NCBI GenBank assembly: GCA_030583805.1
Contig: CP129476.1
Location: 181,453-245,452 of the forward strand
Direction: 5' to 3'
Source: Patescibacteria group bacterium
GTDB taxonomy: Bacteria; Patescibacteriota; Patescibacteriia; SG8-24; DYFX01
DNA: 64,000 nucleotides
In this document: piece after piece, positions 1 through 64,000 of the stretch
How the letters are laid out: the number at the start of each line of letters is the position of its first letter
Numbering within the stretch: position 1 is the stretch's first letter
Position numbers and translations under genes: made by a program
Notes under the pieces: generated by a model
Told to the model about the DNA's origin: nothing
Databases searched by the model: none
Seen by the model: the letters and a program-made list of their open reading frames with translations, nothing else

Positions 1-311
1 CGCGGCACGACGGTAAAGCCGTCGTGGTGCACTTTCTCGATGAAGTAGCGGAGCATTTTCTCGGTGACTTCAAAGTCGGAGATGATGCCTTTGGAAAGCG
101 GGCGCGCCGTAATGATGTGGGAAGGCGTCTTGCCGACCATCTCCTTCGCCTCCTTGCCCACGGCCAAAATCTGGCTCGTTCGCGTGTTGATGGCGACGAC
201 CGACGGTTCGTTGATCACGATCCCCTTCTCCTTGACGTAGACGCGCGTCGAAGAAGTGCCAAGATCGATTCCGAGGTCCTTTGAAAATCTCCCGAAAAGG
301 TTGTTCAGCAT
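1..311 (-). CDS. mreB: Rod shape-determining protein MreB (N-terminal part; gene continues beyond window start)
   Basis: Hand translation of the minus strand from the ATG at 309-311 gives MLNNLFGRFSKDLGIDLGTSSTRVYVKEKGIVINEPSVVAINTRT..., the conserved actin-fold N-terminus of MreB. The ORF runs off the window edge. Confidence 0.8.
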   Translation of the reverse strand, partial: MLNNLFGRFSKDLGIDLGTSSTRVYVKEKGIVINEPSVVAINTRTSQILAVGKEAKEMVGKTPSHIITARPLSKGIISDFEVTEKMLRYFIEKVHHDGFTVVP

Positions 312-342
312 GGGGTGTGGATAAGGGTGTTACCCTACCATA

Positions 343-723
343 TTAGCGTCCCGAACGAAAGGAAATCAGGAAGAATTCGAGCACGGTCAGGGTGGCGGCA
401 AAGAGCAGCAGATTCCACCAGGTAAGAAGCGTTCTCGACTGGAGAATCAGCGCGCCGACCACGAGGAGCGTCAGGAGCAGGCTTTGGCGGAAAGAGACGG
501 CGACATGGCGTGAAACGGCCTCCTGGCGGCGCAGTCCGGCCCGAACGACCATGCCGAGCACGGAGAACGTTCCGATCAGGGCCAGGGAAAGCGCGGCATA
601 CAGGAGCAGGACGCCGAGGATCCCGCCTTCAAGAGGGTCAACGATGCTGATGATGGAAAAGACGCCGAGCCAGCAGAGCGCGGTCGAGAGTCCCATCCAA
701 AACAGGTATTGGCGGAAGGTCAT
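343..723 (-). CDS. hypothetical integral membrane protein (about 4 TM helices)
   Basis: 126-aa ORF with a hydrophobic helix pattern (LFWMGLSTALCWLGVFSIISIV..., LLLYAALSLALIGTFSVLGMVV...). No recognisable family. Confidence 0.45.
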   Translation of the reverse strand: MTFRQYLFWMGLSTALCWLGVFSIISIVDPLEGGILGVLLLYAALSLALIGTFSVLGMVVRAGLRRQEAVSRHVAVSFRQSLLLTLLVVGALILQSRTLLTWWNLLLFAATLTVLEFFLISFRSGR

Positions 724-735
724 GCGGCCATTGTA

Positions 736-1029
736 TCACCGCCATGGCGAGAGTAAGAACCGGATACGGTCGCCCCCGGCCTTTTTGACCGTTTCGAGCA
801 GAAGCGCCTCGTCTTTTCGCAAGACGGCAACGATGCTCGAAGACTTACAGGCCACGGTCAGGGTGCCGTCTGAAAAGCGCAGAACCTTGAAACCCGGCTC
901 AGTGTCGCGCGGCAAAAGCGAGAGCGCCGCCTCTTCGAACGACGTAAAGGCTTTGGCACGCGCCACTTTCGCGGCCATGCCGTTCTTTTTCACCGTCTCC
1001 GGCAGGATGTTTCCGATCGGCGTGAACAT
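736..1029 (-). CDS. hypothetical protein (98 aa), immediately downstream of the helicase-nuclease gene
   Basis: The ORF track gives 736..1110, but the upstream 74 nt overlap the helicase gene. The internal ATG at 1027-1029 (MFTPIGNILPETVKK...) abuts the helicase stop at 1037, so the shorter start is preferred. Confidence 0.4.
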   Translation of the reverse strand: MFTPIGNILPETVKKNGMAAKVARAKAFTSFEEAALSLLPRDTEPGFKVLRFSDGTLTVACKSSSIVAVLRKDEALLLETVKKAGGDRIRFLLSPWR

Positions 1030-1036
1030 GCGTCCT

Positions 1037-3907
1037 TTATAGCACTTTAAAGCGGCAGATGTCTTTAAAGTCGCAATACTTGCAGGTGTGGGCGCTCGGC
1101 GAGGGCGCAAAGTCGGAGGCTTCGAGCGCCGCGATCTTTTTCCCGATCGACGCGCGGATATCGTCCAGGTTTTCCTCAGGCTCGACCTCCTGCAGCACGT
1201 CGTCCTTCAGGAACCAGAAGGCCATGCGGCTTGTTTTCATCTGGTACACGTCGGCGAGGGCGAGCTGGTAGATCCTGAGCTGCTCCTTCATGCCGGCATC
1301 GAGCCGTTCTTTTGATTTTCCGGTCTTGTAGTCGATGATCATGGCGGAGCCGTCCGCGAGCTTGTCGATGCGATCGATCTTGCCCTTTAAGACGTAGCCT
1401 TCGACTTTGAGCGTGAAAGGCGCTTCGGTCATCCACGGCGTCGGCTGTTCCAGGACGGTGCGCGCGTGCGCGCGGCTGATCGCCTCGCGGCCGGCGCGAT
1501 GGAAATCCTCGCGCACGTCCGCATCTTCATACCACTCCCCCGTCCACTGGCTCTCGTAGAGCGCCAAGAGTTCCTCAAGCGGCATCCAGGTTCCAGGGTT
1601 CGCTTTGGAGGCTTCAATGAACGTTTCGAGAACGGAGTGGATCAGCTTGCCGAAGTGCAGCGGACCCTTGTCGAGCGTCGGAATTTTGAGGAGATGCGCG
1701 AACTTGTACTGCAGCGGGCAGTTGTCAAAGGCGGCCAGCTGGGAAAAGCTGAAGCTCGACGGCAATTCCAGAACGACGCCGCCTGTCGCGTCGCTGGCGG
1801 CGGCCTCCGGCTCGTGGAAGCCGGCGCTTTTTCCGGCCGCAATGACCTTGATCACGGCCTTGTTTTCTTCGTTGGAAAAAATTTCGTCCAAAAACCGGGA
1901 AGGTTTCTTTTTCCGCGCGCCGCCCGTGTCCTCCGTCGCGGTAAGATAGAGCCTGTCCTTCGCGCGCGTGCAGGCGACATAGAGCAGCCTGCGCTCTTCT
2001 TCGAGATGCGCATCCGCGCCTTCGTTCGGCGTTTCTTTGACGAGCGCGTCGGGGAACGGAATGGGCTCGCGGCGGTTATCGCCCGGGAAGCGGCGCGCCA
2101 CGAGCTGTACGACAAAGACGTTCTTGAATTCCAAGCCTTTCGACGTGTGCGCCGTCATGAGCTTGACGGTGTCCGGCCCTTCCGTGAGATCGGACGGGAT
2201 CCGGCCTTCCTCGCCGGATTCCAGCTCCCAGTCGAGCACGCGCATGAAGCCGCGCAGGCTCGGGCGCGGATCGTCGTTTTCGTACGTTTGGATGCGGCGC
2301 ACCAGCTGGTTCAAGTAGCCGATCGCTTCGATCGTCTGCGGCGTTTCTTCCTTCAAGAGATCTTCGTAATACCCCGTATCGACAAAGATTTCCTTGAGCA
2401 GCCGCGCAGGCGTCGTGCGGCGCGCCCGCTCGGCATGCTTCTCGATCAGCGCTTCGATGCGCCGGAACGTTTCGAGCGTCGTGCCGGAAAAACCGAGCGT
2501 GCCGGCTTCGCGCAGCGCTTCGTAGAGCGACCAGCTCTTGCGGTCGGCTTCGTGCGTCAGTTTCACGATATCGAGCGCCGGCACGTTGAAAATGTGCCAT
2601 GACAGCACGCGGTGCAGCGCCGGGCTTTCGTGGTAGTTATCGAGCAGCTTGAAGTAGCAAATCGCGTCTTGAATGACGGGTTTGGTGTAGAGGCCTTTGG
2701 ACGCGACGTACAGATGCGGAATGCCCCGGCGCGTGAAGGCTTCCAAAAACGGTTTGAGATGCGCGTTGGCGCGGGCCAGGATCGCGAAATCGCCCCATTC
2801 CAATTCAGGATCGCTCTCCTTGAGACGCAGGATCTCTTCGGCCACGTAGCGCGCTTCGTCGTCGATGCCCGCCAAGGTGGCATGCGTGATCGCGCCGCCG
2901 TTTCCGCGCTCGGCCACGAGCCGCTTCGACAAGCCGAGCTTGGCCTCGAGGCGGTTCGGATCGTTCTGCTTGATGAAGCGGTAGCTGACGTCGAGAATTT
3001 CCTGTTTGGAGCGGTAGTTGCGCGTCAGGAAGATCTGCGCCGCTTTCGGGAAGTCGTCCTTGAACGCCAAAATATTCGAGACGGAAGCGCCGCGGAATTT
3101 GTAAATGGATTGATCGTCATCGCCCACGACCGTCAGATTGCCGTCTTGTCCGGAAAGCAGCTTTACGAGCTCGTACTGCGCGACGTTCGTGTCTTGGAAT
3201 TCGTCGACCAGGACGTATTTGAAGCGCTTGCGAAACTCCGCGAGCACGCTCGGGCGTTCGCGGAAAAGGCGGATCGTTTCGGAGATGAGCGCGCCGAAGT
3301 CGAGCTGCTTCCGGTCGAGCAGAAGGTTTTCGTAGACCTCGAAGGCGCGCGCGACTTCGAGAACCCGCGCTTTTTCATCCGGCTCCGCCTCAAGCGCCTC
3401 GGCGTAGGCGCGGTACTGCGGCGGCGTGACGAGCTCGTCCTTGGCGTGGCTGAAGTGGCTGAGCAGTTCGTGGATGAAGCGCGAGGGGTCGCCGAGCGGA
3501 CGGTAATAGTCGAGACCGAAGTCTTTCAGCCGGTCGCGCACCGAAAGCCAGGCGCCGGTTTCATCGAGCAGTTTGGCATCGGCGGCCAGGCCGATATCGA
3601 TGCCGCGTTCCTTGAGCACGCGCTCGCCGAAGCCGTGGAACGTGAGCGCCCAGAGTTCGACGTAGCCGATCGGCAAAAGCGCGTCCAGGCGTTCCTCAAG
3701 CTCCGAAGCGGCTTTTTCCGTGAAGGTGAGCGCCAGGATCTCCCCCGGCGCGGCGCGGCCCGTGGCGATGAGCCAAGCGATGCGTTTGGCGATCACGCTG
3801 GTTTTGCCCGTTCCGGCGCCGGCCACGATTAAAAGCGGTCCTTCCGCATGGGTCACGGCGGCGGTTTGCTCGGGATTCAAGCCTTCCAACAGCGTTTGGG
3901 AATCCAT
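1037..3907 (-). CDS. UvrD/PcrA-family superfamily-1 helicase fused to a C-terminal RecB-family (Cas4/AddB-like) PD-(D/E)xK nuclease with a 4-Cys iron-sulfur cluster motif
   Basis: Walker A motif AGAGTGKT. UvrD helicase motifs (VDEFQDT, TRNYRS, VGDDDQSIY, helicase C-terminal motifs). C-terminus has the RecB nuclease motif IIDYKTGK and cysteines FDNCPLQY ... CKYCDFKDIC, spaced as in AddB/Cas4 Fe-S nucleases. The ATG at 3905-3907 (MDSQTLLEG) is preferred over the TTG at 3913 listed in the ORF track. Confidence 0.85.
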   Translation of the reverse strand: MDSQTLLEGLNPEQTAAVTHAEGPLLIVAGAGTGKTSVIAKRIAWLIATGRAAPGEILALTFTEKAASELEERLDALLPIGYVELWALTFHGFGERVLKERGIDIGLAADAKLLDETGAWLSVRDRLKDFGLDYYRPLGDPSRFIHELLSHFSHAKDELVTPPQYRAYAEALEAEPDEKARVLEVARAFEVYENLLLDRKQLDFGALISETIRLFRERPSVLAEFRKRFKYVLVDEFQDTNVAQYELVKLLSGQDGNLTVVGDDDQSIYKFRGASVSNILAFKDDFPKAAQIFLTRNYRSKQEILDVSYRFIKQNDPNRLEAKLGLSKRLVAERGNGGAITHATLAGIDDEARYVAEEILRLKESDPELEWGDFAILARANAHLKPFLEAFTRRGIPHLYVASKGLYTKPVIQDAICYFKLLDNYHESPALHRVLSWHIFNVPALDIVKLTHEADRKSWSLYEALREAGTLGFSGTTLETFRRIEALIEKHAERARRTTPARLLKEIFVDTGYYEDLLKEETPQTIEAIGYLNQLVRRIQTYENDDPRPSLRGFMRVLDWELESGEEGRIPSDLTEGPDTVKLMTAHTSKGLEFKNVFVVQLVARRFPGDNRREPIPFPDALVKETPNEGADAHLEEERRLLYVACTRAKDRLYLTATEDTGGARKKKPSRFLDEIFSNEENKAVIKVIAAGKSAGFHEPEAAASDATGGVVLELPSSFSFSQLAAFDNCPLQYKFAHLLKIPTLDKGPLHFGKLIHSVLETFIEASKANPGTWMPLEELLALYESQWTGEWYEDADVREDFHRAGREAISRAHARTVLEQPTPWMTEAPFTLKVEGYVLKGKIDRIDKLADGSAMIIDYKTGKSKERLDAGMKEQLRIYQLALADVYQMKTSRMAFWFLKDDVLQEVEPEENLDDIRASIGKKIAALEASDFAPSPSAHTCKYCDFKDICRFKVL

Positions 3908-3935
3908 TGACAATTCAGCTATTTTCAGCTATCCT
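3907..3935 (+). promoter_or_regulatory. sigma-70-like promoter: -35 TTGACA (3907-3912), 17-nt spacer, -10 TATCCT (3930-3935), driving the GTG-start gene at 3983
   Basis: Canonical TTGACA read directly. Exact 17-nt spacer. The -10 matches TATAAT at 4 of 6 positions. AAGGAG Shine-Dalgarno at 3971-3976, 6 nt before the GTG at 3983. Confidence 0.4.
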
Positions 3936-3982
3936 AGCACACATTCGGGACACAACCCTCTCGAAGACAAAAGGAGCCTGTA

Positions 3983-4351
3983 GTGACCAAGAGCATCCAC
4001 ATCGTCGGCAAGTTCGCGTCCGAGGACGCGGCGCTTCTCTCCCGCACGATCAAGTCCAAGTACCAAGGTGCGTTCGAGATCGTTCCGCACGCCGACCAGA
4101 ACGCGTTCACGAACGCGGTTCGACCCGATCAGATGCCGAGCGTCCTCGTGCTCGGCAACCGCCTCTCTGCCATGATGGCCGGCGACTTCGCCGCCAAGCT
4201 GCGCCGCGAGGGCTACAAGGGCAAGATCTTCGTCTACACCGGCGGCATCGAGGTCGCCAAGACGCAGGACGTCGACGCGGTCTTCTACAAGCCGGGTGAC
4301 GCCAACAAGATCGTGAACGTCCTCATCCTCGCGCTGCACGCCGCTCGCTAG
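3983..4351 (+). CDS. hypothetical protein (122 aa); possible degenerate CheY-like receiver fold
   Basis: GTG start preceded by AAGGAG. Alternating beta/alpha pattern (IHIVGK ... VLVLGN ... KIFVYTGG ... KPGD) resembles a receiver domain, but the acidic phospho-acceptor residues are absent. Divergent from the helicase gene. Confidence 0.5.
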   Translation: MTKSIHIVGKFASEDAALLSRTIKSKYQGAFEIVPHADQNAFTNAVRPDQMPSVLVLGNRLSAMMAGDFAAKLRREGYKGKIFVYTGGIEVAKTQDVDAVFYKPGDANKIVNVLILALHAAR

Positions 4352-4371
4352 AGCGAACCCGCAACGCGAAA

Positions 4372-4406
4372 CCCCGCCCTCTTCGGAGGAGCGGGGCTGT
4401 TTTTTA
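4372..4406. terminator. Rho-independent terminator hairpin (CCCCGCCCTCTTCGGAGGAGCGGGGC followed by TTTTTTAT), between convergent genes
   Basis: GC-rich inverted repeat followed by a T6 run, directly after the stop of the 3983..4351 gene. It overlaps the stop of the 4404..4845 minus-strand gene. Confidence 0.5.
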
Positions 4407-4845
4407 TGCCGTTTGGAAACTGATGGTCCCCGCGTCGTCGATGTGCGCGATCGTTTTGAGGACTTCGAGATCCGGATATTTCTCAAGAATCATATTCCTC
4501 GCGGCTTCAAGATCCTCGGCATGCTTGGCGCGCTCCTCTTCCATCGAGGCGAAGGCCTTGCGCCCGCCGTAGGCGCCGCAGTCGGTGTGATTCATGAGGA
4601 CGACGCGGCACACGTCGTGCAGCCGCTTGGAAATGTCGAGCTGCCGCAGGACGAACTCGACGTCCGTCGGCTGCGCGGGATTGACCAGGTTTTTGACCGC
4701 GCCCGCGATCGAGACGACATCGACGTCGCCCATCAGACCCTCCTTTTCCATGTAGGCCTTAATGTCGGCGGCGAAACGAAAGTCGATGCAGTGGAAAATA
4801 ATCGTAGAGCAGGTGTGTTTCATAGGAAAACGTTTGTTCGCCATA
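4404..4845 (-). CDS. beta-carbonic anhydrase-like protein, cab-type (single domain)
   Basis: Contains CIDFR (C-x-D-x-R) and HTDCGAYGG (H-x-x-C-G), the two zinc-ligand signatures of beta-class carbonic anhydrases. Start is ambiguous between the ATG at 4845 (MANKRFPMKH) and the ATG at 4823 (MKHTC). The Arg-rich N-terminal extension of the full ORF (to 5105) is rejected. Confidence 0.55.
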
Positions 4846-4909
4846 CGATAGCAAGCCGTTCTGAAAATGAAAAGCCCGCTTGGTCGGCGACCAGCGGGCA
4901 CGAGCGGCG

Positions 4910-5716
4910 TCAGGGATCGCGCCGTTCGATCGTCCCGATCCGACCGTCCGCGAGGCGAACGATGGCCGGGATGATGGCGACGCCGGAGAAGCGACGGCGC
5001 AAGACGCCCCGAGCGACGCGCAACCGGTAGTCGAACTGCGCGTCTTCGTGCGCCGTGTTCTCGAACATCTGACTGCCGCCGAAGGCGCCGCAGTCGGTGT
5101 GACACGTGATCACGATCGTCCGAAGATCGTGGCGCTCGCGGTAGTCGTTGATCTGAGCGAGCGTCAGACGGCTGCGGCGCATCGTGCCCTCGACGTCCTT
5201 GGCACCTCCCGCCATCGCCAGGATGTGCGGGGCCTCATCGAGACCGAGCTGCATCGCGAGCTTCGTCGCCAGATCGTTGTCGTGCTGGCGGAAGTCCATA
5301 CAGGTGATGGCGAGCGTCCGGCAGCGCGCGTCGGGCATCGGAACCGGGCCCATGTCGATGCTGTTGATCGGCACGTCCTCCGAGATCGGGTTCGGAAAGA
5401 CCTTCCGCGAAACGTGGAACTGCTCGCGTACGGCCGCGACAATCTGTTCGACGTTCGCCCCGCCGACCACCAGGATCTGCTCGCCCTTGTGGAGCGAAAG
5501 CGCCAACATGGCGTCTTCGACCGCCTGCGTGAGCACCTCCTTGTTGCCGGCGAGGTGCGGGAAGTCGAGCGCCGTCAGGAGATCGAAACGCCCGTCGCGT
5601 CCGGTCTTCTTGATCAGCGCGCCGATACTCGGTGCCCAGGCATGGGCCTGCCTGGCGCAGGTGATCACGGTCGTTTGGCATTCTGCCGCGAGACGGTCTT
5701 CTGCGGTGGGATGCAT
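4910..5716 (-). CDS. tandem-domain beta-carbonic anhydrase-like protein (degenerate N-terminal copy plus intact C-terminal copy)
   Basis: C-terminal half has CMDFR and HTDCGAFGG. The N-terminal half keeps the fold pattern (ITCARQAHAW) but has lost the Asp/Arg and the HxxC motif. Start taken at the ATG at 5714-5716 (MHPTAEDRL), preceded by AAAGGAA. It is a paralog of the adjacent 4404..4845 gene. Confidence 0.55.
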   Translation of the reverse strand: MHPTAEDRLAAECQTTVITCARQAHAWAPSIGALIKKTGRDGRFDLLTALDFPHLAGNKEVLTQAVEDAMLALSLHKGEQILVVGGANVEQIVAAVREQFHVSRKVFPNPISEDVPINSIDMGPVPMPDARCRTLAITCMDFRQHDNDLATKLAMQLGLDEAPHILAMAGGAKDVEGTMRRSRLTLAQINDYRERHDLRTIVITCHTDCGAFGGSQMFENTAHEDAQFDYRLRVARGVLRRRFSGVAIIPAIVRLADGRIGTIERRDP

Positions 5717-5793
5717 CCGATTCCTTTCTTTTACGGGTGGGACGCGGCGTATCGTATGCGCTCTAACCGTTTCTGTCAAGGTGGCGAGATTTT

Positions 5794-5819
5794 AAAAAAC
5801 CGCCCTGTTTTTGGGCGGT
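5794..5819 (-). terminator. Rho-independent terminator (minus strand) after the small membrane-protein gene
   Basis: Minus strand reads CCGCCCAAAAACAGGGCGG followed by TTTTTTAAAA. The hairpin lies immediately 3' of the 5819 stop. Confidence 0.45.
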
Positions 5820-6160
5820 TAACCGATGTCAGGCGGATGCTTTATCCGGTCCTGATTGAAGGGGTGATCCGGGTTGAGGATCGAGTTCTCCCAGGTCTTG
5901 CGATCGAGGTCGATCAGTCCTTGGGACGGCTGCTCGTTACGCCGCTCCCAGATGCCGTGGCGCAGCATGCGTCGGAACCAGAGCGCGATCGTGAGCGGCA
6001 GCAGCATGGCCGCGGCCAGTACCGCGGCTTCGCTCAGCTGTCCCTGCCGCACGTGGTCGAGGCTGAAGACGCCGAGCAGGAGCGTGATCAGGCCAAAGGT
6101 CCAGGTGAAGAGCACGAAGTCGGACTTTTTCCAGGCGTGCGCGGACGATCGATCGTTCAT
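5819..6160 (-). CDS. small membrane protein (113 aa)
   Basis: Start at the ATG at 6158-6160 (MNDRSSAHAW...), preceded by a strong AAGGAGG. Two hydrophobic helices (FVLFTWTFGLITLLLGVFSL, AAVLAAAMLLPLTIALWF). Confidence 0.5.
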   Translation of the reverse strand: MNDRSSAHAWKKSDFVLFTWTFGLITLLLGVFSLDHVRQGQLSEAAVLAAAMLLPLTIALWFRRMLRHGIWERRNEQPSQGLIDLDRKTWENSILNPDHPFNQDRIKHPPDIG

Positions 6161-6264
6161 GGAAGCCTCCTTGGATGCGCATAGGGTAGTCCAAAAAGCC
6201 TTGATTGTCAACCCGTCTTGACGGTCGAGGTATTTTCTGATGATCTGCGCGCGGGAGGAACCAC

Positions 6265-6843
6265 ATGGAAAAGACGGTCTTTGTCTTGCCTGACGATAGC
6301 GAAGCGCTGGCGCGAGTTATCGAAGCGGTCCCCCAGGAATGGTCTTGGGTGGACGGACGACTTGGGCCGCCCCAAGCCCTGGTCGAGAACGGGCAGGTTG
6401 CTCGTACGGCCGGCTATTTCATCGGCCGTTTTCATTCGATCCACCCGACGATCCAGGGTCCGTGGAACCATAAGGAAAGACGCAGCGATCGTCCTGATCT
6501 TTGCGAGATCCTGATCGAGCATAAGCTGCCCCTCTTTATCGCCTTTGATGAAGCGGGCTTTCAAGAACGCACGATGCATCTCGGCGCCGCGAAAAAAATC
6601 GCCGCGCATCATGTCCGGTTCGGCTATCGCGGATGGCTCTTCTGGTATGTCGGCTGGGACGACGATGACAAGTACAGGAACGAGGCTCGGTGCGAGATGC
6701 ACTTCTCGCGACAAGAGAACGAAGCCAAGAACTGGCTCGTCGAACTCGCCGTCCTGCCGCGCTTTGGAGGCAAGCCGGAAGCGCTGACGCCGCTCTTGGA
6801 AGCCTGCCGAGCGCTCGGACTGAAGGAGTTCTCGGAAAACTGA
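6265..6843 (+). CDS. hypothetical protein (192 aa)
   Basis: GGGAGG Shine-Dalgarno 7 nt upstream of the ATG. Followed by a clean terminator. No family recognised (Trp-rich segment GWLFWYVGWDDDDKY). Confidence 0.55.
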   Translation: MEKTVFVLPDDSEALARVIEAVPQEWSWVDGRLGPPQALVENGQVARTAGYFIGRFHSIHPTIQGPWNHKERRSDRPDLCEILIEHKLPLFIAFDEAGFQERTMHLGAAKKIAAHHVRFGYRGWLFWYVGWDDDDKYRNEARCEMHFSRQENEAKNWLVELAVLPRFGGKPEALTPLLEACRALGLKEFSEN

Positions 6844-6865
6844 CGATTCGCCGCCAAAAAACGCA

Positions 6866-6899
6866 GACGCCCCGTGCCAGCGGCACGAGGCGTTTTTTC
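6866..6899. terminator. bidirectional Rho-independent terminator between convergent genes (6265..6843 on plus and atpC on minus)
   Basis: GACGCCCCGTGCC-AGC-GGCACGAGGCGT hairpin followed by TTTTTTC on the plus strand. An A-run lies on the other side. Confidence 0.5.
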
Positions 6900-7343
6900 T
6901 TACTGTTGGATATGCGGCATGCCGGAGCGGCTGCGATGCTTGCGGACAACCTTGAGGCGCGCGAGCTCGCGCGCGAGTCCTGCCGCGGCGTCGGCGTAGC
7001 GCTCTTCGTCGTCGAACTTCTCTTTGAGGAGTTCTTCGGCGCGCGCTTTGGCTTCCTCAATCGCTTTGAGATCGAGTTCGTCGGCGCGCTCGGCGCTGTC
7101 GGCCAAAATAGCCAAGCGGTTGCCGGGATGCACCGTGACGAATCCTCCCGAGACGGCCAGGAGCATTTCTGAGCCGTCTTCGTTCACGACGCGAAGCTCG
7201 CCCGCCTGGATGGGGGCGACGAGCGGCAGGTGGTCGGGCAGGACGGTGATTTCGCCTTCCGTCGTCGGGATCGAAACCTGGCGAACCTTGGCCTGCACGG
7301 CCACGCGCTCGGGCGTCGTGAGTTCGAAGTCGAGCACTTTCAT
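6900..7343 (-). CDS. atpC: F0F1 ATP synthase subunit epsilon
   Basis: Epsilon-subunit beta-sandwich N-terminus (MKVLDFELTTPERVAVQAKVRQVSIPTTEGEITVLPDHLPLVAPI...) and a helical C-terminus. Last gene of the atp operon. Confidence 0.85.
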   Translation of the reverse strand: MKVLDFELTTPERVAVQAKVRQVSIPTTEGEITVLPDHLPLVAPIQAGELRVVNEDGSEMLLAVSGGFVTVHPGNRLAILADSAERADELDLKAIEEAKARAEELLKEKFDDEERYADAAAGLARELARLKVVRKHRSRSGMPHIQQ

Positions 7344-7344
7344 G

Positions 7345-9623
<2,279 letters not shown>

Positions 9624-9632
9624 AACGGTCGG

Positions 9633-11147
<1,515 letters not shown>

Positions 11148-58992: not shown

Positions 58993-60333
58993 CTAGTTGT
59001 TCGCCGGCGTCGTGAACGTGAGTTCGGACGAAGCCGTCGTGTTTCCCGCCGCGTCAGAGGCGATGATAATCGCGTGATAGGTCGTCTCGGGCGAGAGACC
59101 GGTCAATGCGACGTCATGCGCGCTGGCGGCGACGGTCACGGCGACCGTCGACGTTCCGCTCGTGTCGACGGGCGTGCTGGTGCTCGAATAGACGGCCGCA
59201 GTCACGTTTTCATTGGTCGTGAAGAGCAGGTGCGCGGACGTCGCCACGATGCTGCCAACCGACGACGTAAGGAAGGTCGGTGCCGTCGTGTCCGGCTGGG
59301 CCAGCGTCGTGAACATCACTTCAGACGAGGTCGTCGAGTTTCCAGATCCATCCGTGACCACGACGCGGACGTAATACGTCGTCGAAGCGGCGAGTCCCGT
59401 CAGATTGATGCTGTGGGTGACGGACGACGAAGCGCTCGCGACAAAACTGGCGGACGAGCCGGTGTCGACCGGCGTCGAAGTCGAAGAATAGACCTTCGCG
59501 CTCACGGACTCATTGGCGGTAAGAAGAACGCGTGCGGAAGACGTTGTGACGCTGTCGGTCGAGAGTCCGGTGATCGTAGGGGTGGTCGTGTCGTTGTTGT
59601 CATCATCGTCCTCATCATCGTCATCGTGGGGGCAGCGACCTTCCGTGTCGCCATGGCCGATGTGCGCCGGGAGCGACGGACGAGCGATCGCGATCGTGTG
59701 AGCCTTATCCCCGCCCGCCTTGTGGCAAACGAGCACCTTGTTTTTGCCGAAGCCGTCGTTCTCGAACGCGTCGTCGGACGCGCCGCGCGCGCGGAGTTTC
59801 GAAAGGCGCTTTTCGCGGAGCGTCTTGATGAGATCGGAGGATTTGCGCTCGCGCTCAGGCTTGAAGTCCCTTTCGTGCTCGACATCCGCGCCGAACGTAT
59901 AGTCGACGAAGAAGGCGTCCGACAAGTCGTCGACCATCTGGTTCCAGCGCTCGCCAAAGAGCGCGCGGGCCACGGCTTCGGACTTCAGCCAGCGGAGCAC
60001 GCCGCCTTCATCCACCGCGTACACCTTGGGGTCGGTCTGGAGTTTGACGAGGCGCTTCGCCGGCTTGTACGGCACATTGCCGGTCAGCGGATGCTCGCTC
60101 AGCGTCGCGTCGTCCACTTCGACGACGCCGTCGAAATTCGCGTACCAGCTGGCAAAAATGCGGGCGTTCGGGAACACCTGTCGCCCGAGATCCTCGTCGA
60201 GGTAGTACACCGCCGAGGAAGAGACGGACTTCACCAGCTGGCCGGGAGCCAGCAAGGGGCCCTGCGCGCCGACCGCAGCCGGCATGGCGCCAAGCAACAG
60301 CGCCAAGGAGAGCATGAATGAAACCTTCTTCAT
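58993..60333 (-). CDS. secreted protein (446 aa): signal peptide, N-domain shared with the giant repeat protein, acidic linker, two fibronectin-III-like repeats
   Basis: Signal peptide MKKVSFMLSLALLLGAMPAAVGAQG. N-domain AVYYLDEDLGRQVFPN ... DPKVYAVDEGGVLRWLKSEAVARALFG aligns with AVYYCGADMKRYVFTN ... DPKVYAISHGGVLRPIGSEAVASALYG. DDDDEDDDD linker. Two repeats ending LTGLxxxTTYxxxxxxxDxxGNxTxSSExxFTT. Confidence 0.7.
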   Translation of the reverse strand: MKKVSFMLSLALLLGAMPAAVGAQGPLLAPGQLVKSVSSSAVYYLDEDLGRQVFPNARIFASWYANFDGVVEVDDATLSEHPLTGNVPYKPAKRLVKLQTDPKVYAVDEGGVLRWLKSEAVARALFGERWNQMVDDLSDAFFVDYTFGADVEHERDFKPERERKSSDLIKTLREKRLSKLRARGASDDAFENDGFGKNKVLVCHKAGGDKAHTIAIARPSLPAHIGHGDTEGRCPHDDDDEDDDDNNDTTTPTITGLSTDSVTTSSARVLLTANESVSAKVYSSTSTPVDTGSSASFVASASSSVTHSINLTGLAASTTYYVRVVVTDGSGNSTTSSEVMFTTLAQPDTTAPTFLTSSVGSIVATSAHLLFTTNENVTAAVYSSTSTPVDTSGTSTVAVTVAASAHDVALTGLSPETTYHAIIIASDAAGNTTASSELTFTTPANN

Positions 60334-60526
60334 AACCGTAAAAGATGAGTGAATAAGGATCACGTACCAAAATCCGCCTTATACGCGAAAATGGCTTGTC
60401 GCTATGCTATGACGCGCGAGAACGGGCTTTCTTACGCATATTGGGCCGCGCGTACAGTGGCCCCGGCCAGTCTACCACAGGGGAAAGCGCCCCAAGAGAA
60501 TGAACAATGCGCCTCCTTTTAGAAAA

Positions 60527-60970
60527 CTACTTTTCTACAAGTTTCCGCAACGTATCGATGACGGCACGCTTCCAAGACCGCATCGCGAACCACTTTATCA
60601 AGGGGGTTCCAATAATCCTGAGCAGCGGCCGGTGGATTTCAAGGTCGTACGTATACGTGATCTTGGTGCCTCCTTCAATGTCCTCCATGAAAAACTCTTC
60701 GTAACCCGAAGTTCCGAAAGAAGATTCGTTATTGGACCTAAAGCCGACATTCGGCACAAGTTCGGTTCGCATTTTCACGTCAAAAACCCTGCCAAACGAT
60801 TTCACTTTCGCGACCATCTTCTGGTGGTTTCCTTCTTTTTCGGTTATGCGTACGGATTCGGCAACGGCTGGAAAATACGTAGGCATCTTTTCAAAATCGG
60901 AAATGATCCTATAGATTTCCTCTTTTGGAGCCTTCAGCACCCAGGAGCCTTGCAGATGGAGACGCTTCAT
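60527..60970 (-). CDS. SRPBCC (Bet v1/polyketide-cyclase-like) family protein
   Basis: Start at the ATG at 60968-60970 (MKRLHLQGSWVLKAPKEEIYRIISDFEKMPTYFP). Length and pattern are typical of Polyketide_cyc2. Low GC. Confidence 0.55.
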   Translation of the reverse strand: MKRLHLQGSWVLKAPKEEIYRIISDFEKMPTYFPAVAESVRITEKEGNHQKMVAKVKSFGRVFDVKMRTELVPNVGFRSNNESSFGTSGYEEFFMEDIEGGTKITYTYDLEIHRPLLRIIGTPLIKWFAMRSWKRAVIDTLRKLVEK

Positions 60971-61235
60971 AAACGAAGTATAGTAAAGCGCAGCAACGAA
61001 CGTCCACCCGACAAGCAAAAACCCACCACGTTCGTGATGGGTCTTTGCTGGCTCCGCAGGTGGGTGGGGTACCCACAGGACTGTATGTGTTAGGGCTTTT
61101 TTGAGAGGCGACGTGGACGATTTTGACGCACGTGGGTCTCAAGGGGTTTGTGGTGAAATCGTACAAATCGAACACGATGCATAAGATCCATAGCAGAATT
61201 CGAATGGGAAAATCTGTACATGGGTAAGGTCGTGA

Positions 61236-62042
61236 TCAGAGCGTGATTCCCGGGTTCATCTCCTTCAGCTTCACCACCATCTCCTCCATGCCAAGCAAGT
61301 GGAATAGGTGATTCGCTGAGGCAGTGACTACCGTGTCTACGAGTCCTGTGACCTTCTCATTATTACGCTGTGCCATGGCAATCCAGTGCGCCTTGGCCTC
61401 AGCGCTTGCATTCCGTTCCTCCTCCTCTTGTTCTCTATGAAATTCCGCAACTCGATCAGGATTCGCATTCGGGAATATACTTCCAAAGATTTCCCTGCCC
61501 TTGCGAGCGTTCTCTGCTCTGAGAGCGGCGCCATCCATGAACCTTGGACCGTGGTGGACGTGCGGGTTTCTGTGCTCTGAAGTTCCCTCAAATGATGAGC
61601 CGATTTCTTGTTTCAACGCACGGTAGTATGCGCTCACATCATCACTGTTCGTTGCGACTGCACTCACGTCCTTCCTTGCATGGTCGACGTACGTTTCAAG
61701 CTTGTTCTTCAGCGTGTCCATGTCCTGTAAATACGCGTGGACGTGATGGTTGAACGATTCATCAAAGGCAATGCCCGACGAAATATCCGGATAGAAGGAC
61801 TCGAAGAATACTGGGTATCGAAGCACTTTATCCCTTGCGTAGCCAATGCTGCTGAGCATCTCCTGGTACTTCCTAAGCAGCACATCGTCTATGGCGTTTT
61901 GGTCGTACTCGGGCTGGAAGGCTTCGAGAAGCATTTCCGGTTCCTTGCATACAAAAAGTAGCGCGCGGATCTGCCCGAGCTTGTCTACAGGAGCATCAGC
62001 ACCCCCTTTAGTGTCTTTGTCCTCAATGTTTATATTAGACAT
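61236..62042 (-). CDS. hypothetical His-rich protein (268 aa), last gene of the island operon
   Basis: Start at the ATG at 62040-62042 (MSNINIEDKDTKGG). His clusters NHHVHAY and RNPHVHHGP. No family recognised. Confidence 0.45.
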   Translation of the reverse strand: MSNINIEDKDTKGGADAPVDKLGQIRALLFVCKEPEMLLEAFQPEYDQNAIDDVLLRKYQEMLSSIGYARDKVLRYPVFFESFYPDISSGIAFDESFNHHVHAYLQDMDTLKNKLETYVDHARKDVSAVATNSDDVSAYYRALKQEIGSSFEGTSEHRNPHVHHGPRFMDGAALRAENARKGREIFGSIFPNANPDRVAEFHREQEEEERNASAEAKAHWIAMAQRNNEKVTGLVDTVVTASANHLFHLLGMEEMVVKLKEMNPGITL

Positions 62043-62043
62043 A

Positions 62044-62053
62044 CGGTAGTGAG
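62044..62053. repeat. C10 homopolymer (G10 on the coding strand), 1 nt upstream of the 61236..62042 start codon
   Basis: Read directly: gagCCCCCCCCCCactctg. On the minus strand the context is TGA CCAAAGGCAGAGT GGGGGGGGGG C ATG. Confidence 0.9.
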
Positions 62054-62076
62054 CCCCCCCCCCACTCTGCCTTTGG

Positions 62077-62817
62077 TCATTTCCTAAGCATTTGTTCCGT
62101 TTCCTGCCTCTTGTACGGCTCGAACCGGCGAAGGTGGTCGATGACGGTACGAACATCCCCTTTCGCCTCGGCTTCCACGTGTGAGTACGTCCATGTTTCG
62201 CTATTCAGTCTTCCAGTGATGGCGTTAAGTACCCGAGCCAAAACATCGAGAAGGTCCCTGATTTCGTCTACGGTCAACTCCGGCGGCTGCGGCTTCTCGA
62301 CATCATCATGTGCCAGCCACTTGTCGCGATAGGTTTCCAGTCGCGCCAAAGTATCCGCATGCCTGTCGAGCATCTTCTTTATATCAACAAGCTCGCCGTA
62401 GTTCATGGCCTTGTATTTGACGACTAGCTCATCCAAGAATTCGCGTGAGCGATTCTGGTTGTATTCCTCAAACGCCTCGACCGTAAGGTTCTTCATGTTT
62501 CCCTCGGTAAAGCCGAGGACTTTGTTGATCGACAAAGCCTGCTTCGACGTGTCGAACATCTTGGCAAGTTCAAGCAGACAGTTCGTACGGAAAGCCTTCT
62601 CGGCCAAAATGAAAAAATGCCTGTATCCGCTCATCGTCTTTACGTTTGCTTCGGCCTCCTCCTGACCGAGGACATTCGGCGCCCTAGCTTCGCGCAGAGC
62701 GTCGAACAAATAGAAGAAAGAGAGGGCGTGATAGTAGCGCCGGTGCATGGTCTTGGCAAAATCCATCAACGTTTCAAATTCTCGCTTTTGCGGTTTTAGT
62801 CCTGAGGTATCCGCCAT
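62077..62817 (-). CDS. hypothetical alpha-helical protein with R-x5-H motif (possible HEPN-type domain)
   Basis: 246 aa. YRDKWLAHDD fits the Rx4-6H HEPN signature. Start ATG lies 1 nt after the stop of the upstream membrane-protein gene. Confidence 0.45.
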   Translation of the reverse strand: MADTSGLKPQKREFETLMDFAKTMHRRYYHALSFFYLFDALREARAPNVLGQEEAEANVKTMSGYRHFFILAEKAFRTNCLLELAKMFDTSKQALSINKVLGFTEGNMKNLTVEAFEEYNQNRSREFLDELVVKYKAMNYGELVDIKKMLDRHADTLARLETYRDKWLAHDDVEKPQPPELTVDEIRDLLDVLARVLNAITGRLNSETWTYSHVEAEAKGDVRTVIDHLRRFEPYKRQETEQMLRK

Positions 62818-62818
62818 A

Positions 62819-63523
62819 TTATTCTCCGATATACGACATCGCTATTAATACCGCACCGAATGCGAAAGATGCGGTGGTCAAGATCGGCATCGCGTAACCG
62901 AGAATAGCGGAGCCGATCTTATCGCGCAGTGTCTCTTTTCCAATGTTCTCTTCTGAAAGGATGGACATTTTTTCCTTCAGGTAGGCATCAAAAGAGCGAC
63001 CTTGGTCGTGTGTTTCCTTCAGTTGCTTCAGGATTCTTGTTTGCGCGTCCTTTTGCCATCTCACCACAGCTCCAAATCGTCGATTGTCGCGAAGATGAAT
63101 GAACAAGATGTCGAGAACACCCAGAACAACAGAGGTGACGAGCAGGAGCAAGCCGATCGTCGGTGACTTGTCCGCATCCGGATGTTGACCGAGCCCCGAT
63201 GCGGTGAAGCCGATGATGGTAAGGGAGAATCCGACGAGAGTCGTGAGGAAGGATCGAAACGAACTGACACCTTGTAGAAGAAGGGACTTGTTGTCCGACA
63301 AGACTTTTTCGAACACCTCCTTCACGTGTTTCTCTTCCTTGGAGAATCTCCACGTTTCCTTGGATATTTCCTCCGTCATTTTCTCTAGGTACAGGTCGGA
63401 CTTGCTTTCCAGGATGGATAACAGCTTCAGGATGGGCGGCGATGACAAAAACGCGATGAGCTCGTCCTTCCATGAGGGCTCCTGCATGTCCATTTGCTGC
63501 TCGTTTTCTGTCGGGTCCGTCAT
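62819..63523 (-). CDS. hypothetical membrane protein (N-terminal about 90-aa soluble domain plus 3 TM helices)
   Basis: Start at the ATG at 63521-63523 (MTDPTENEQQ), 4 nt after the stop of the HTH gene. TM helices FLTTLVGFSLTIIGFTASGL, IGLLLLVTSVVLGVLDILFI, IGSAILGYAMPILTTASFAFGAVLIAMSYI. Confidence 0.45.
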   Translation of the reverse strand: MTDPTENEQQMDMQEPSWKDELIAFLSSPPILKLLSILESKSDLYLEKMTEEISKETWRFSKEEKHVKEVFEKVLSDNKSLLLQGVSSFRSFLTTLVGFSLTIIGFTASGLGQHPDADKSPTIGLLLLVTSVVLGVLDILFIHLRDNRRFGAVVRWQKDAQTRILKQLKETHDQGRSFDAYLKEKMSILSEENIGKETLRDKIGSAILGYAMPILTTASFAFGAVLIAMSYIGE

Positions 63524-63527
63524 AACA

Positions 63528-63752
63528 CTATGTTCTTGGGTGCGCCTTATGTGAGGCAACGTAAAACCGATCCTCGATTGGCATGACGCGCTGACGTTCA
63601 AGATAGTCCAGTATTTCTGCCTCGTCGAAACGGAGGTGGCGGCCGATGCGATAAAACGGGAGGATCCGGCTCTGGACCATCCTATAGATCGTCGGATTCG
63701 AGACGATGAACATCTCGGCCACATCATCGATTGTCAGTAGTTTCTTTGACAT
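63528..63752 (-). CDS. excisionase-family (MerR-like) helix-turn-helix DNA-binding protein
   Basis: Start at the ATG at 63750-63752. MSKKLLTIDDVAEMFIVSNPTIYRMVQSRILPFYRIGRHLRFDEAEILDYL matches the Xis/AlpA-type HTH pattern (LLTxxEvAexLxVSxxTIYRxxxxGxLPxxRIGRxxRF). Confidence 0.6.
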   Translation of the reverse strand: MSKKLLTIDDVAEMFIVSNPTIYRMVQSRILPFYRIGRHLRFDEAEILDYLERQRVMPIEDRFYVASHKAHPRT

Positions 63753-63907
63753 GGAATCGGTTGTCCCTACGGCCCTCGGCCGCTGCCCCAACAATGTTGA
63801 GTTAGTGGATAGAGTTCGTTTGCCCACGAGACCGTAGGGGGTGGAATCTTATACCGACCCTCGACAAAAAGAAAACAGCCGCCATCGCGGGCATTTTCCA
63901 TCGGACT

Positions 63908-64000
63908 TACTTCTTTTCCGCAGCCTTCTGCTTATCCGCCATGTAGCAATCAAGGGCGAGGTGCGCGAGCTCGGTAAGGTCGTTCACGACTTCCGCCGCC
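63908..64000 (-). CDS. C-terminal end of an unidentified native-GC gene (partial, continues beyond window end)
   Basis: Minus-strand frame reads ...AAEVVNDLTELAHLALDCYMADKQKAAEKK then stop. A weak hairpin with a T-run follows. Too short to name. Confidence 0.3.

Follow-up and report, generated by a model that had tools for sequence, protein, structure and literature searches.

A most likely defence-type, mosaic gene cassette encoding a HEPN_AbiU2 protein in a low-GC island of a Patescibacteria genome

At one end of a 64,000-nucleotide (nt) stretch from the genome of a Patescibacteria group bacterium (GenBank assembly GCA_030583805.1, contig CP129476.1, positions 181,453 to 245,452 of the forward strand; hereafter the window), four closely packed genes, designated A to D, occupy an island of low guanine-plus-cytosine (GC) content. 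Judging from their sequences and the company kept by their relatives, these genes are most likely a defence-type cassette on the remnant of a mobile element, assembled as a mosaic and not as a defined system of four genes. It is on balance probable that they form a mosaic abortive-infection or exclusion cassette, carried as accessory cargo by a horizontally acquired, decayed phage-like or satellite-like element of at least 10 kb. The antiviral repertoire of the Patescibacteria, which are tiny and depend on a host, is poorly charted, and to our knowledge the lineage is largely devoid of CRISPR. The features central to the argument are the following.

63528..63752, minus strand: gene A, 74 amino acids (aa), HTH_17/excisionase-family protein (Pfam HTH_17, 3e-16; TIGR01764 'excise', 5e-14)
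62819..63523, minus strand: gene B, 234 aa, a soluble head of about 90 aa and three transmembrane (TM) helices (hydropathy)
62077..62817, minus strand: gene C, 246 aa, HEPN_AbiU2 protein, predicted RNase effector (profile PF18734)
61236..62042, minus strand: gene D, 268 aa, all-helical protein of a family without a name (own family alignment, AlphaFold2 model)
62054..62063, minus strand: homopolymer of ten G (G10) in the spacer between C and D, 11 nt upstream of the start of D
60370..64000, no strand: part of the low-GC island that lies in the window (GC, tetranucleotide z-score, continuation in metagenome contig L001)

A preliminary description of the window, made from its sequence alone, had reported four minus-strand genes with spacers of 1 to 4 nt, encoding an excisionase-family helix-turn-helix (HTH) protein, a protein with a 90-residue soluble head and three TM helices, a HEPN-like protein with an R-x5-H motif and a His-rich protein of 268 aa, in a combination that matched no named system. 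The four open reading frames (ORFs) are confirmed, and the descriptions of their products stand; the short spacers are those between A and B (4 nt) and between B and C (1 nt), the spacer between C and D being 34 nt long. No named system was recognized with Pfam, NCBIfam and PADLOC profiles, the match of A to MAD1 being below threshold. Gene A contains the HTH_17/'excise' domain, and no integrase lies nearby; it is the predicted regulator of the operon, and this role is preferred to that of an excisionase (Xis) because HTH_17 genes recur ahead of AbiU2 genes, as shown below. The hydropathy of gene B peaks at residues 93-111, 123-142 and 214-232. B has no match in Pfam, NCBIfam or the PDB, none in IMG/VR when its alignment was used for the scan, and weak matches among PADLOC and PHROG models (the best, PD-Lambda-2_A, at 1.4e-3); the proposal that it is a membrane effector is conjecture.

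The product of gene C matches the HEPN_AbiU2 profile PF18734 with E = 2e-19 and 70.2 bits, against a cutoff of 26.8, over positions 10-192 of 193, and in its motif YRDKWLAHDD the residues R164 and H170 (R-x5-H) are invariant among 33 aligned relatives of 41-61% identity. By profile and motif, C is a bona fide member of HEPN_AbiU2 with an intact Rx4-6H dyad. Of its 92 relatives at 40-61% identity, all that carry an organism name are from Patescibacteria, including Daviesbacteria, Uhrbacteria, Yanofskybacteria and Parcubacteria. The AbiU locus that includes AbiUii was reportedly described in Lactococcus lactis by Dai et al. in 2001. AbiU2 was defined as a HEPN family by Anantharaman et al. (2013) and occurs in operon with restriction-modification (R-M) operons, and a separate HEPN family, Bxe_C0808, was reported to be 'in operon with AbiU2' (PMC3710099). 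The deposited version of C (P0001; locus tag QY323_01345, from the metagenome-assembled genome of a Patescibacteria group bacterium) has 229 aa, its start lying 17 codons after the ATG at 62817. Because the omitted segment (62767-62817) includes the residues R-E-F-E-T-L, which align with conserved N-terminal residues in relatives, the 246-aa start is preferable and the deposited annotation is probably truncated.

Conservation of the operon was assessed in 70 AbiU2 loci (66 from metagenomes and four for one Uhrbacteria relative) and in ten loci of the D family. No relative of B or D was found in the 70 AbiU2 loci, either by tblastn or by profile hidden Markov models (HMMs) on six-frame ORFs, and profile HMMs found no AbiU2 gene in nine of the D-family loci, the tenth being L083; B was found in this locus and in contig L074 only. 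A-B-C-D as a conserved four-gene system is ruled out by these tblastn and HMM searches, and recurrence of the quartet elsewhere, which the preliminary description had proposed to look for, was not found, the sole exception being the pair C-D in L083. On this contig (961 nt, from another sample) a homolog of D (84% identical) is preceded by the C-terminal 40 residues of an AbiU2 protein that is about 88% identical to C, so that the C-D pair exists in at least one close relative.

The front of the operon recurs in a more general form. An HTH_17 gene in the same direction precedes AbiU2 in seven other loci, abutting it in L017, L018, L031 and L033, whereas in L007, L008 and L013 a single gene encoding about 260 aa lies between the two; the arrangement A-B-C is a variant of this HTH_17-X-AbiU2 order with B as the intervening gene. 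The intervening gene of L008 (2840-3631), also present in L007, encodes 263 aa with the motif LNRNSAGHP (Rx4H) and no Pfam match, and may be another HEPN-like protein. The single homolog of B among 5.8 billion sequences (P0097, 48% identical) lies on L074 (1-1377) beside a divergently oriented HTH_17 gene, the product of which is 47% identical to A; 12 nt further on, an SLFN_AlbA_2 gene (8e-11) takes the place of AbiU2. This arrangement suggests an exchange of one nuclease-type effector for another downstream of the same membrane protein.

These partial recurrences bear on the idea that the operon is a stack of unrelated cargo, in which A would be a phage or satellite protein of Xis or repressor type, B a membrane protein of superinfection exclusion, C and D single-gene modules, and the operon itself a transcriptional convenience. 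Each family does occur elsewhere with other partners, D is set apart by its 34-nt spacer with a G-rich sequence of its own resembling a ribosome-binding site, and single-protein HEPN defences exist, such as HepS on Gifsy-1 (PMC13043305). However, the spacers of 1 and 4 nt suggest translational coupling of A, B and C, the order HTH_17-(X)-AbiU2 recurs, and the pairings of HTH with B and of C with D have each been found a second time, so that mere stacking is rather unlikely.

The commonest neighbour of AbiU2 is a DNA methyltransferase gene. Of the 65 loci in which an AbiU2 ORF was called, 29 have one within four genes, often in contact or overlap with AbiU2; this linkage with R-M genes reproduces the published association (PMC3710099). 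Other recurring neighbours are type IIG enzymes, large serine recombinases and c3, a family of 209 aa without a Pfam match that is encoded 2 nt downstream of AbiU2 in ten loci (for example, L020:8723-9352). A c3 homolog (57% identical) is also found at L077:3-668, two genes upstream of a D-family gene, which makes c3 a partner common to the AbiU2 and D families and a link between them. Both families, to judge from these neighbourhoods, are part of a gene pool that is shuffled among the defence islands and mobile elements of these lineages.

Gene D encodes 12 His residues (4.5%) and has no match in Pfam, NCBIfam, PADLOC or PHROG. It has two close homologs among the 5.8 billion sequences, and a HMMER search of 1.84 billion representatives yielded 94 remote relatives (representative clusters) with E-values up to 1e-3, of which 69 reach E <= 1e-10. 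In an alignment of 51 sequences, Y76 and H100 are invariant, and R158, H161 and H163 each show conservation of 90% or more; the strongly conserved motifs are E-x-L-x-H-H-I-H-A-Y-L-x-D and R-N-P-H-x-H-x-G, the latter containing R158, H161 and H163. The AlphaFold2 model built from this alignment is all helical, with a predicted local distance difference test score (pLDDT) of 93.2 and a predicted template modelling score (pTM) of 0.88; a model from three sequences (pLDDT 44) was discarded. Foldseek comparison of the model with the PDB and BFVD returned nothing with a template modelling score above 0.3, only generic helical bundles. Single members of the family weakly match CARF_HEPN (5e-4), Csx1 (1e-3) and HEPN_Cthe2314 (6.5e-3), and members of AbiU2, a genuine HEPN family, give equally weak cross-matches to other HEPN models. 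D may be either a HEPN domain that has diverged strongly or a helical bundle that binds metal. A relationship of D to AbiU2 was rejected by hhalign; kinship with the 209-aa gene found downstream of AbiU2 in Uhrbacteria was also rejected, the match having E = 0.014 and covering 39 residues. The G10 tract upstream of D occupies the position of the ribosome-binding site, where the close relative L083 reads AAGGGGA; it may be a slippage-prone tract at that site or an assembly artefact.

The relatives of D are found in R-M and defence-type neighbourhoods. In L079 (722-8340), L080 and L081, complete type I R-M operons have the order hsdM-221aa-D-hsdS-hsdR with 4-nt overlaps; the 221-aa partner looks winged-helix-like by eye at its N-terminus. 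In L077 (3-4294) the order is c3-148aa-D-hsdS-SduA_C, the last being a Shedu nuclease-domain gene. Upstream of one D relative are genes for a PLD-SNF2 helicase, an Eco57I/MmeI-type methyltransferase and a membrane protein of 168 aa; another is beside TIR_2, Imm_superinfect and TerB_N genes; a further one adjoins a serine recombinase; and one is near SocA_Panacea, integrase and resolvase genes in an Absconditabacteria genome. In the Absconditabacteria sequence L082 (6001-7802), in-frame TGA codons under translation table 11 split the D homolog in two and interrupt a gene with resemblance to tetratricopeptide repeat proteins eight times, which is consistent with the use of genetic code 25 in this lineage.

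The SocA_Panacea domain belongs to antitoxins, and its proximity to a D-family member is one of several features that would fit a toxin-antitoxin or addiction module, with C (possibly D) as a HEPN toxin neutralized by B or D, serving to stabilize the island without a role against phages. HEPN domains are common as toxins of such modules (PMC3710099), the 4-nt and 1-nt spacers imply tight coupling, and an HTH gene of autoregulatory type heads the operon, as is typical of toxin-antitoxin loci. Against this, neither the nucleotidyltransferase domain of MNT antitoxins (absent from A, B, D and the neighbouring gene E in Pfam and NCBIfam searches) nor any other recognized antitoxin domain was found with Pfam, PADLOC and NCBIfam, the AbiU2 relatives have varied neighbours or a methyltransferase alone rather than one fixed small partner, and neither B nor D is conserved as a partner of AbiU2. 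An addiction module is accordingly considered unlikely.

The composition of the island was examined along the window. In windows of 400 nt, GC content is 0.47-0.54 over 60,400-64,000 and 0.55-0.64 across the 8 kb before; in windows of 2 kb it is 0.51-0.53 in the last three and 0.565-0.633 in all others; and overall it is about 0.51 between roughly 60,400 and the end of the window, compared with 0.60 elsewhere. Against 95 background windows of 3.6 kb, positions 60,001-63,600 have z-scores of -5.8 for GC and +5.9 for tetranucleotide distance. At third codon positions (GC3), the five island genes have GC contents of 0.59-0.65, compared with 0.68-0.80 for four flanking genes. The profile is thus not uniform, and the drop that the preliminary description had placed by eye at about 60,370 is borne out, the boundary on the window side lying at about 60,370-60,530. 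Its upper bound of 63,900 does not hold, as GC content does not recover there and the other end lies beyond the window. The metagenome (Logan) contig L001 equals the window sequence over 11,542 nt at full identity and extends 6,632 nt further, with a mean GC of 0.52, a minimum of 0.41 and low values throughout. Because low GC persists along this whole extension, the island is at least 10 kb long and continues past the window end, as had been suspected. A search of the window for tRNA genes found none, and L001 also lacks them; 59,500-64,000 contains neither an Rfam match nor a tandem repeat of relevance (type III antitoxins and retron RNAs were considered); and a scan for promoters and terminators was uninformative, the counts being about those of shuffled sequence.

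The AbiU2 loci L002-L072 have a median GC of 0.37 (range 0.28-0.51), and the host, at about 0.60, is far higher. The contigs with the closest relatives of B and D, at 0.50-0.52, resemble the island and differ from the host, and the arrival of the island on an element of about 50% GC is consistent with this. The island is compositionally foreign and probably horizontally acquired, most likely being what is left of an integrative element of phage-like or satellite-like type. That A to D could instead be native housekeeping genes of atypical composition is effectively refuted: nothing beyond the missing integrase or att site in the available sequence speaks for it, whereas the composition is a strong outlier, phage-type genes are adjacent, B has one homolog and D two close homologs among the 5.8 billion sequences, and Pfam and NCBIfam assign no housekeeping role to any of the four.

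The phage-type genes and a further gene pair are found in the part of L001 beyond the window.

L001:4745-5772 (corresponding to window coordinates 64861-65888, past its end): pair of genes encoding a 149-aa TM protein and a 193-aa HEPN-like protein (motif, PHROG match)
L001:269-2835, strand opposite to the neighbouring extension genes: block of ParB_N-methyltransferase, methyltransferase and small-terminase-like genes (PHROG matches)

Proceeding outward from the window, the extension encodes a 259-aa CxxC protein (phrog_19960, 2.5e-19), then the 149-aa protein, which has one N-terminal TM helix and overlaps the 193-aa protein by 4 nt, and then two genes without matches. The 193-aa protein carries the motif ALEIRNWLSHRYF (Rx4H; RNWLSH) and matches phrog_12893 (5.5e-11) and no Pfam family, and the two overlapping genes make a second HEPN-like and membrane pair within the same island. 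A sequence search of solved structures with A, B, C, D and the 193-aa protein found nothing. On the other strand are a ParB_N-methyltransferase (phrog_498, 1.7e-93), a second methyltransferase and an HTH protein resembling the small terminase subunit (TerS; phrog_4044, 4.7e-7). The same block is present in identical order, at 59%, 49% and 40% identity, in the IMG/VR viral contig L084 (6096-10013), where the large terminase subunit (TerL) follows the block (3e-78) and a serine integrase (1e-68) is on the contig. Past TerL, L084 encodes 1090-aa helicase-like and 1020-aa methyltransferase-like proteins, not portal or capsid proteins. In L047, AbiU2 itself adjoins a serine recombinase, with TerL, TerS-like and ParB-methyltransferase genes within 8 kb, together with a gene related to that for the 222-aa protein of the island. 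A search of genome contigs with the TerS-like protein gave as its sole match an unrelated Lachnospiraceae sequence. Because the island runs on into genes of phage type, a mobile origin, which the preliminary description had left unproven, is likely to judge from its gene content.

The methyltransferases of the island also invite comparison with a second line of defence coupled to R-M, of the PrrC type, in which C would be held inactive by these methyltransferases or by an unrecognized restriction enzyme and freed when a phage inhibits restriction. The prrC gene sits between hsdM and hsdS in the prr locus, the very position in which D relatives are inserted. Methyltransferases are also the commonest neighbours of AbiU2, a link already published (PMC3710099), and the island has two of them. 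However, they are 4-5 kb distant on the opposite strand, they belong to the phage-typical block of ParB-methyltransferase, methyltransferase and TerS (phrog_498), and no restriction endonuclease was identified in the available 10 kb of the island, which makes this mechanism very unlikely here.

The preferred reading, a mosaic abortive-infection or exclusion cassette on a decayed element, leads to the following model. The HTH_17 protein A would bind the operon promoter and set expression, as its domain and the recurrence of HTH_17 before AbiU2 would predict. C, of which the catalytic dyad is present at the sequence level, would be a HEPN RNase held inactive until infection and, once released, would cleave tRNA, rRNA or mRNA, so that translation of phage and host stops; the proposal of an infection-triggered RNase is made because of the HEPN paradigm of PrrC, RnlA and HepS. 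B, predicted to be anchored in the membrane and probably coupled in translation to C through the 1-nt spacer, could act as a sensor, tether or inhibitor of the downstream nuclease, a gating role proposed because the homolog of B in L074 again adjoins HTH_17, with Schlafen/AlbA_2 in place of AbiU2. D would be a second, separately shuffling module, either a nuclease-like effector or a modulator of C, because its family lives in type I R-M operons and defence islands.

A bolder extension of this model holds A and B to be a Patescibacteria-specific chassis of regulator and membrane sensor with interchangeable nucleases (AbiU2 here, Schlafen/AlbA_2 in L074) and D to be a new HEPN-like abortive-infection family wired to type I R-M, together making an undescribed multi-effector defence system; this is regarded as doubtful. 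Of the earlier proposal of a defence module, what stands is that C belongs to AbiU2 and that relatives of B, C and D are found in defence-type neighbourhoods; what does not stand is that the four genes are one conserved system.

Several observations weigh against the preferred reading. Because the quartet is not conserved, the joint function of A to D is unproven and the genes may just be stacked. The effector swap is seen on one contig of 1.4 kb, in which the HTH gene is divergently oriented and the downstream gene truncated. The methyltransferases of the island being remote from the operon, the classical R-M-coupled arrangement is absent. Neither C nor D has a match in phage and plasmid collections, nor was the AbiU2 subfamily of C found in a scan of IMG/VR by two peptide patterns only. 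As the preliminary description had noted for the window, no integrase or att-like repeat is visible there, nor is an integrase in L001, of which positions 1-11,000 yielded no convincing att-like repeat in direct or inverted orientation; in all, the available 10 kb of the island contains neither integrase nor att site, and no large terminase ORF follows the TerS-like gene in L001 or occurs elsewhere in those 10 kb. Finally, AbiUii, the Lactococcus founder of AbiU2, was not protective and reduced the resistance conferred by AbiUi (PMC13064643), because of which 'AbiU2' is a label for a fold and not for a demonstrated function.

The lower edge of the island is marked by one further foreign gene and by the first gene of native composition.

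60527..60970, minus strand: gene E, protein of SRPBCC/polyketide-cyclase fold (Polyketide_cyc2, 4e-9)
58993..60363, minus strand: secreted-looking protein of 456 aa with Fn3 domains

Gene E, correctly recognized earlier as an SRPBCC gene, encodes 147 aa if translation starts at the ATG, or 163 aa if it starts at a TTG at 61018. The gene (GC 0.476, GC3 0.585) is the last one of low GC content, lies about 265 nt from D and is probably separate cargo. The Fn3 gene, the first of native GC content at the island boundary, encodes an acidic run of D and E, Ser/Thr-rich repeats and two Fn3 or purple-acid-phosphatase-N-like domains.

The wider significance is that the AbiU2-type HEPN gene is a common, shuffling component of the R-M and defence islands and phage-like integrative elements of Patescibacteria. 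Because members of the D family are inserted between hsdM and hsdS, the same position as that of the anticodon nuclease PrrC, the family provides a specific candidate for a new abortive-infection effector linked to R-M. The locus itself adds members and one new arrangement to the HTH-AbiU2 theme and leaves the view of defence otherwise unchanged.

Among the known systems closest to the cassette is HEPN_AbiU2/AbiUii: C passes the family threshold and keeps the Rx4-6H dyad, and its relatives are linked to R-M as published. The partners B and D have not been described for this family, and the subfamily of C was recovered from Patescibacteria metagenomes, with no match in the phage and plasmid collections. 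The lactococcal AbiUi (AbiU1), which is sufficient for resistance there (PMC13064643), has no homolog among A, B and D in PADLOC, Pfam or PHROG searches. Likeness to PrrC/EcoprrI and RloC (PMC3710099) lies in a predicted HEPN RNase in a defence context, in the D relatives between hsdM and hsdS and in the AbiU2 relatives that abut methyltransferases, but in this locus no R-M gene adjoins C or D and no ABC-ATPase domain of the PrrC/RloC type is present. HEPN-MNT toxin-antitoxin systems differ in their adjacent nucleotidyltransferase domain, which is lacking here.

HepS is a single-protein HEPN abortive-infection system of the Gifsy-1 prophage that senses tail-tip proteins (PMC13043305). Like it, C would be HEPN cargo of a phage-derived element, with RNA cleavage arresting infection as the proposed outcome; HepS acts alone, whereas C belongs to an operon of four genes, one of them encoding a membrane protein, and the two are likened by description only. 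A HEPN RNase is also combined with a membrane component in Cas13b, which pairs with the membrane protein Csx28. The same combination is found in the 'HEPN-TM' immune gene mentioned for phage-inducible chromosomal islands (PMC12948488). The 193-aa and 149-aa pair of the island is alike in this respect, and here, unlike in HEPN-TM, the two functions are on separate proteins.

MADS resembles the operon in that an HTH_17-type gene stands at the head of a defence operon and A partially matches MAD1 (NF047737, PADLOC mad1), with E-values of 3e-9 and 7e-12 against MAD1 models. The score of A against the equivalog NF047737 is 45.5 bits, however, below the cutoff of 80, no mad match was found in B, C or D, no other MADS gene is adjacent, and the weak match of one distal methyltransferase to mad2 is one among 62 methyltransferase models. 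Compared with prophages and integrative elements, the island presents a TerS-like gene and phage-type methyltransferases only, and the corresponding blocks of L084 and L047 add to these an integrase or recombinase and TerL.

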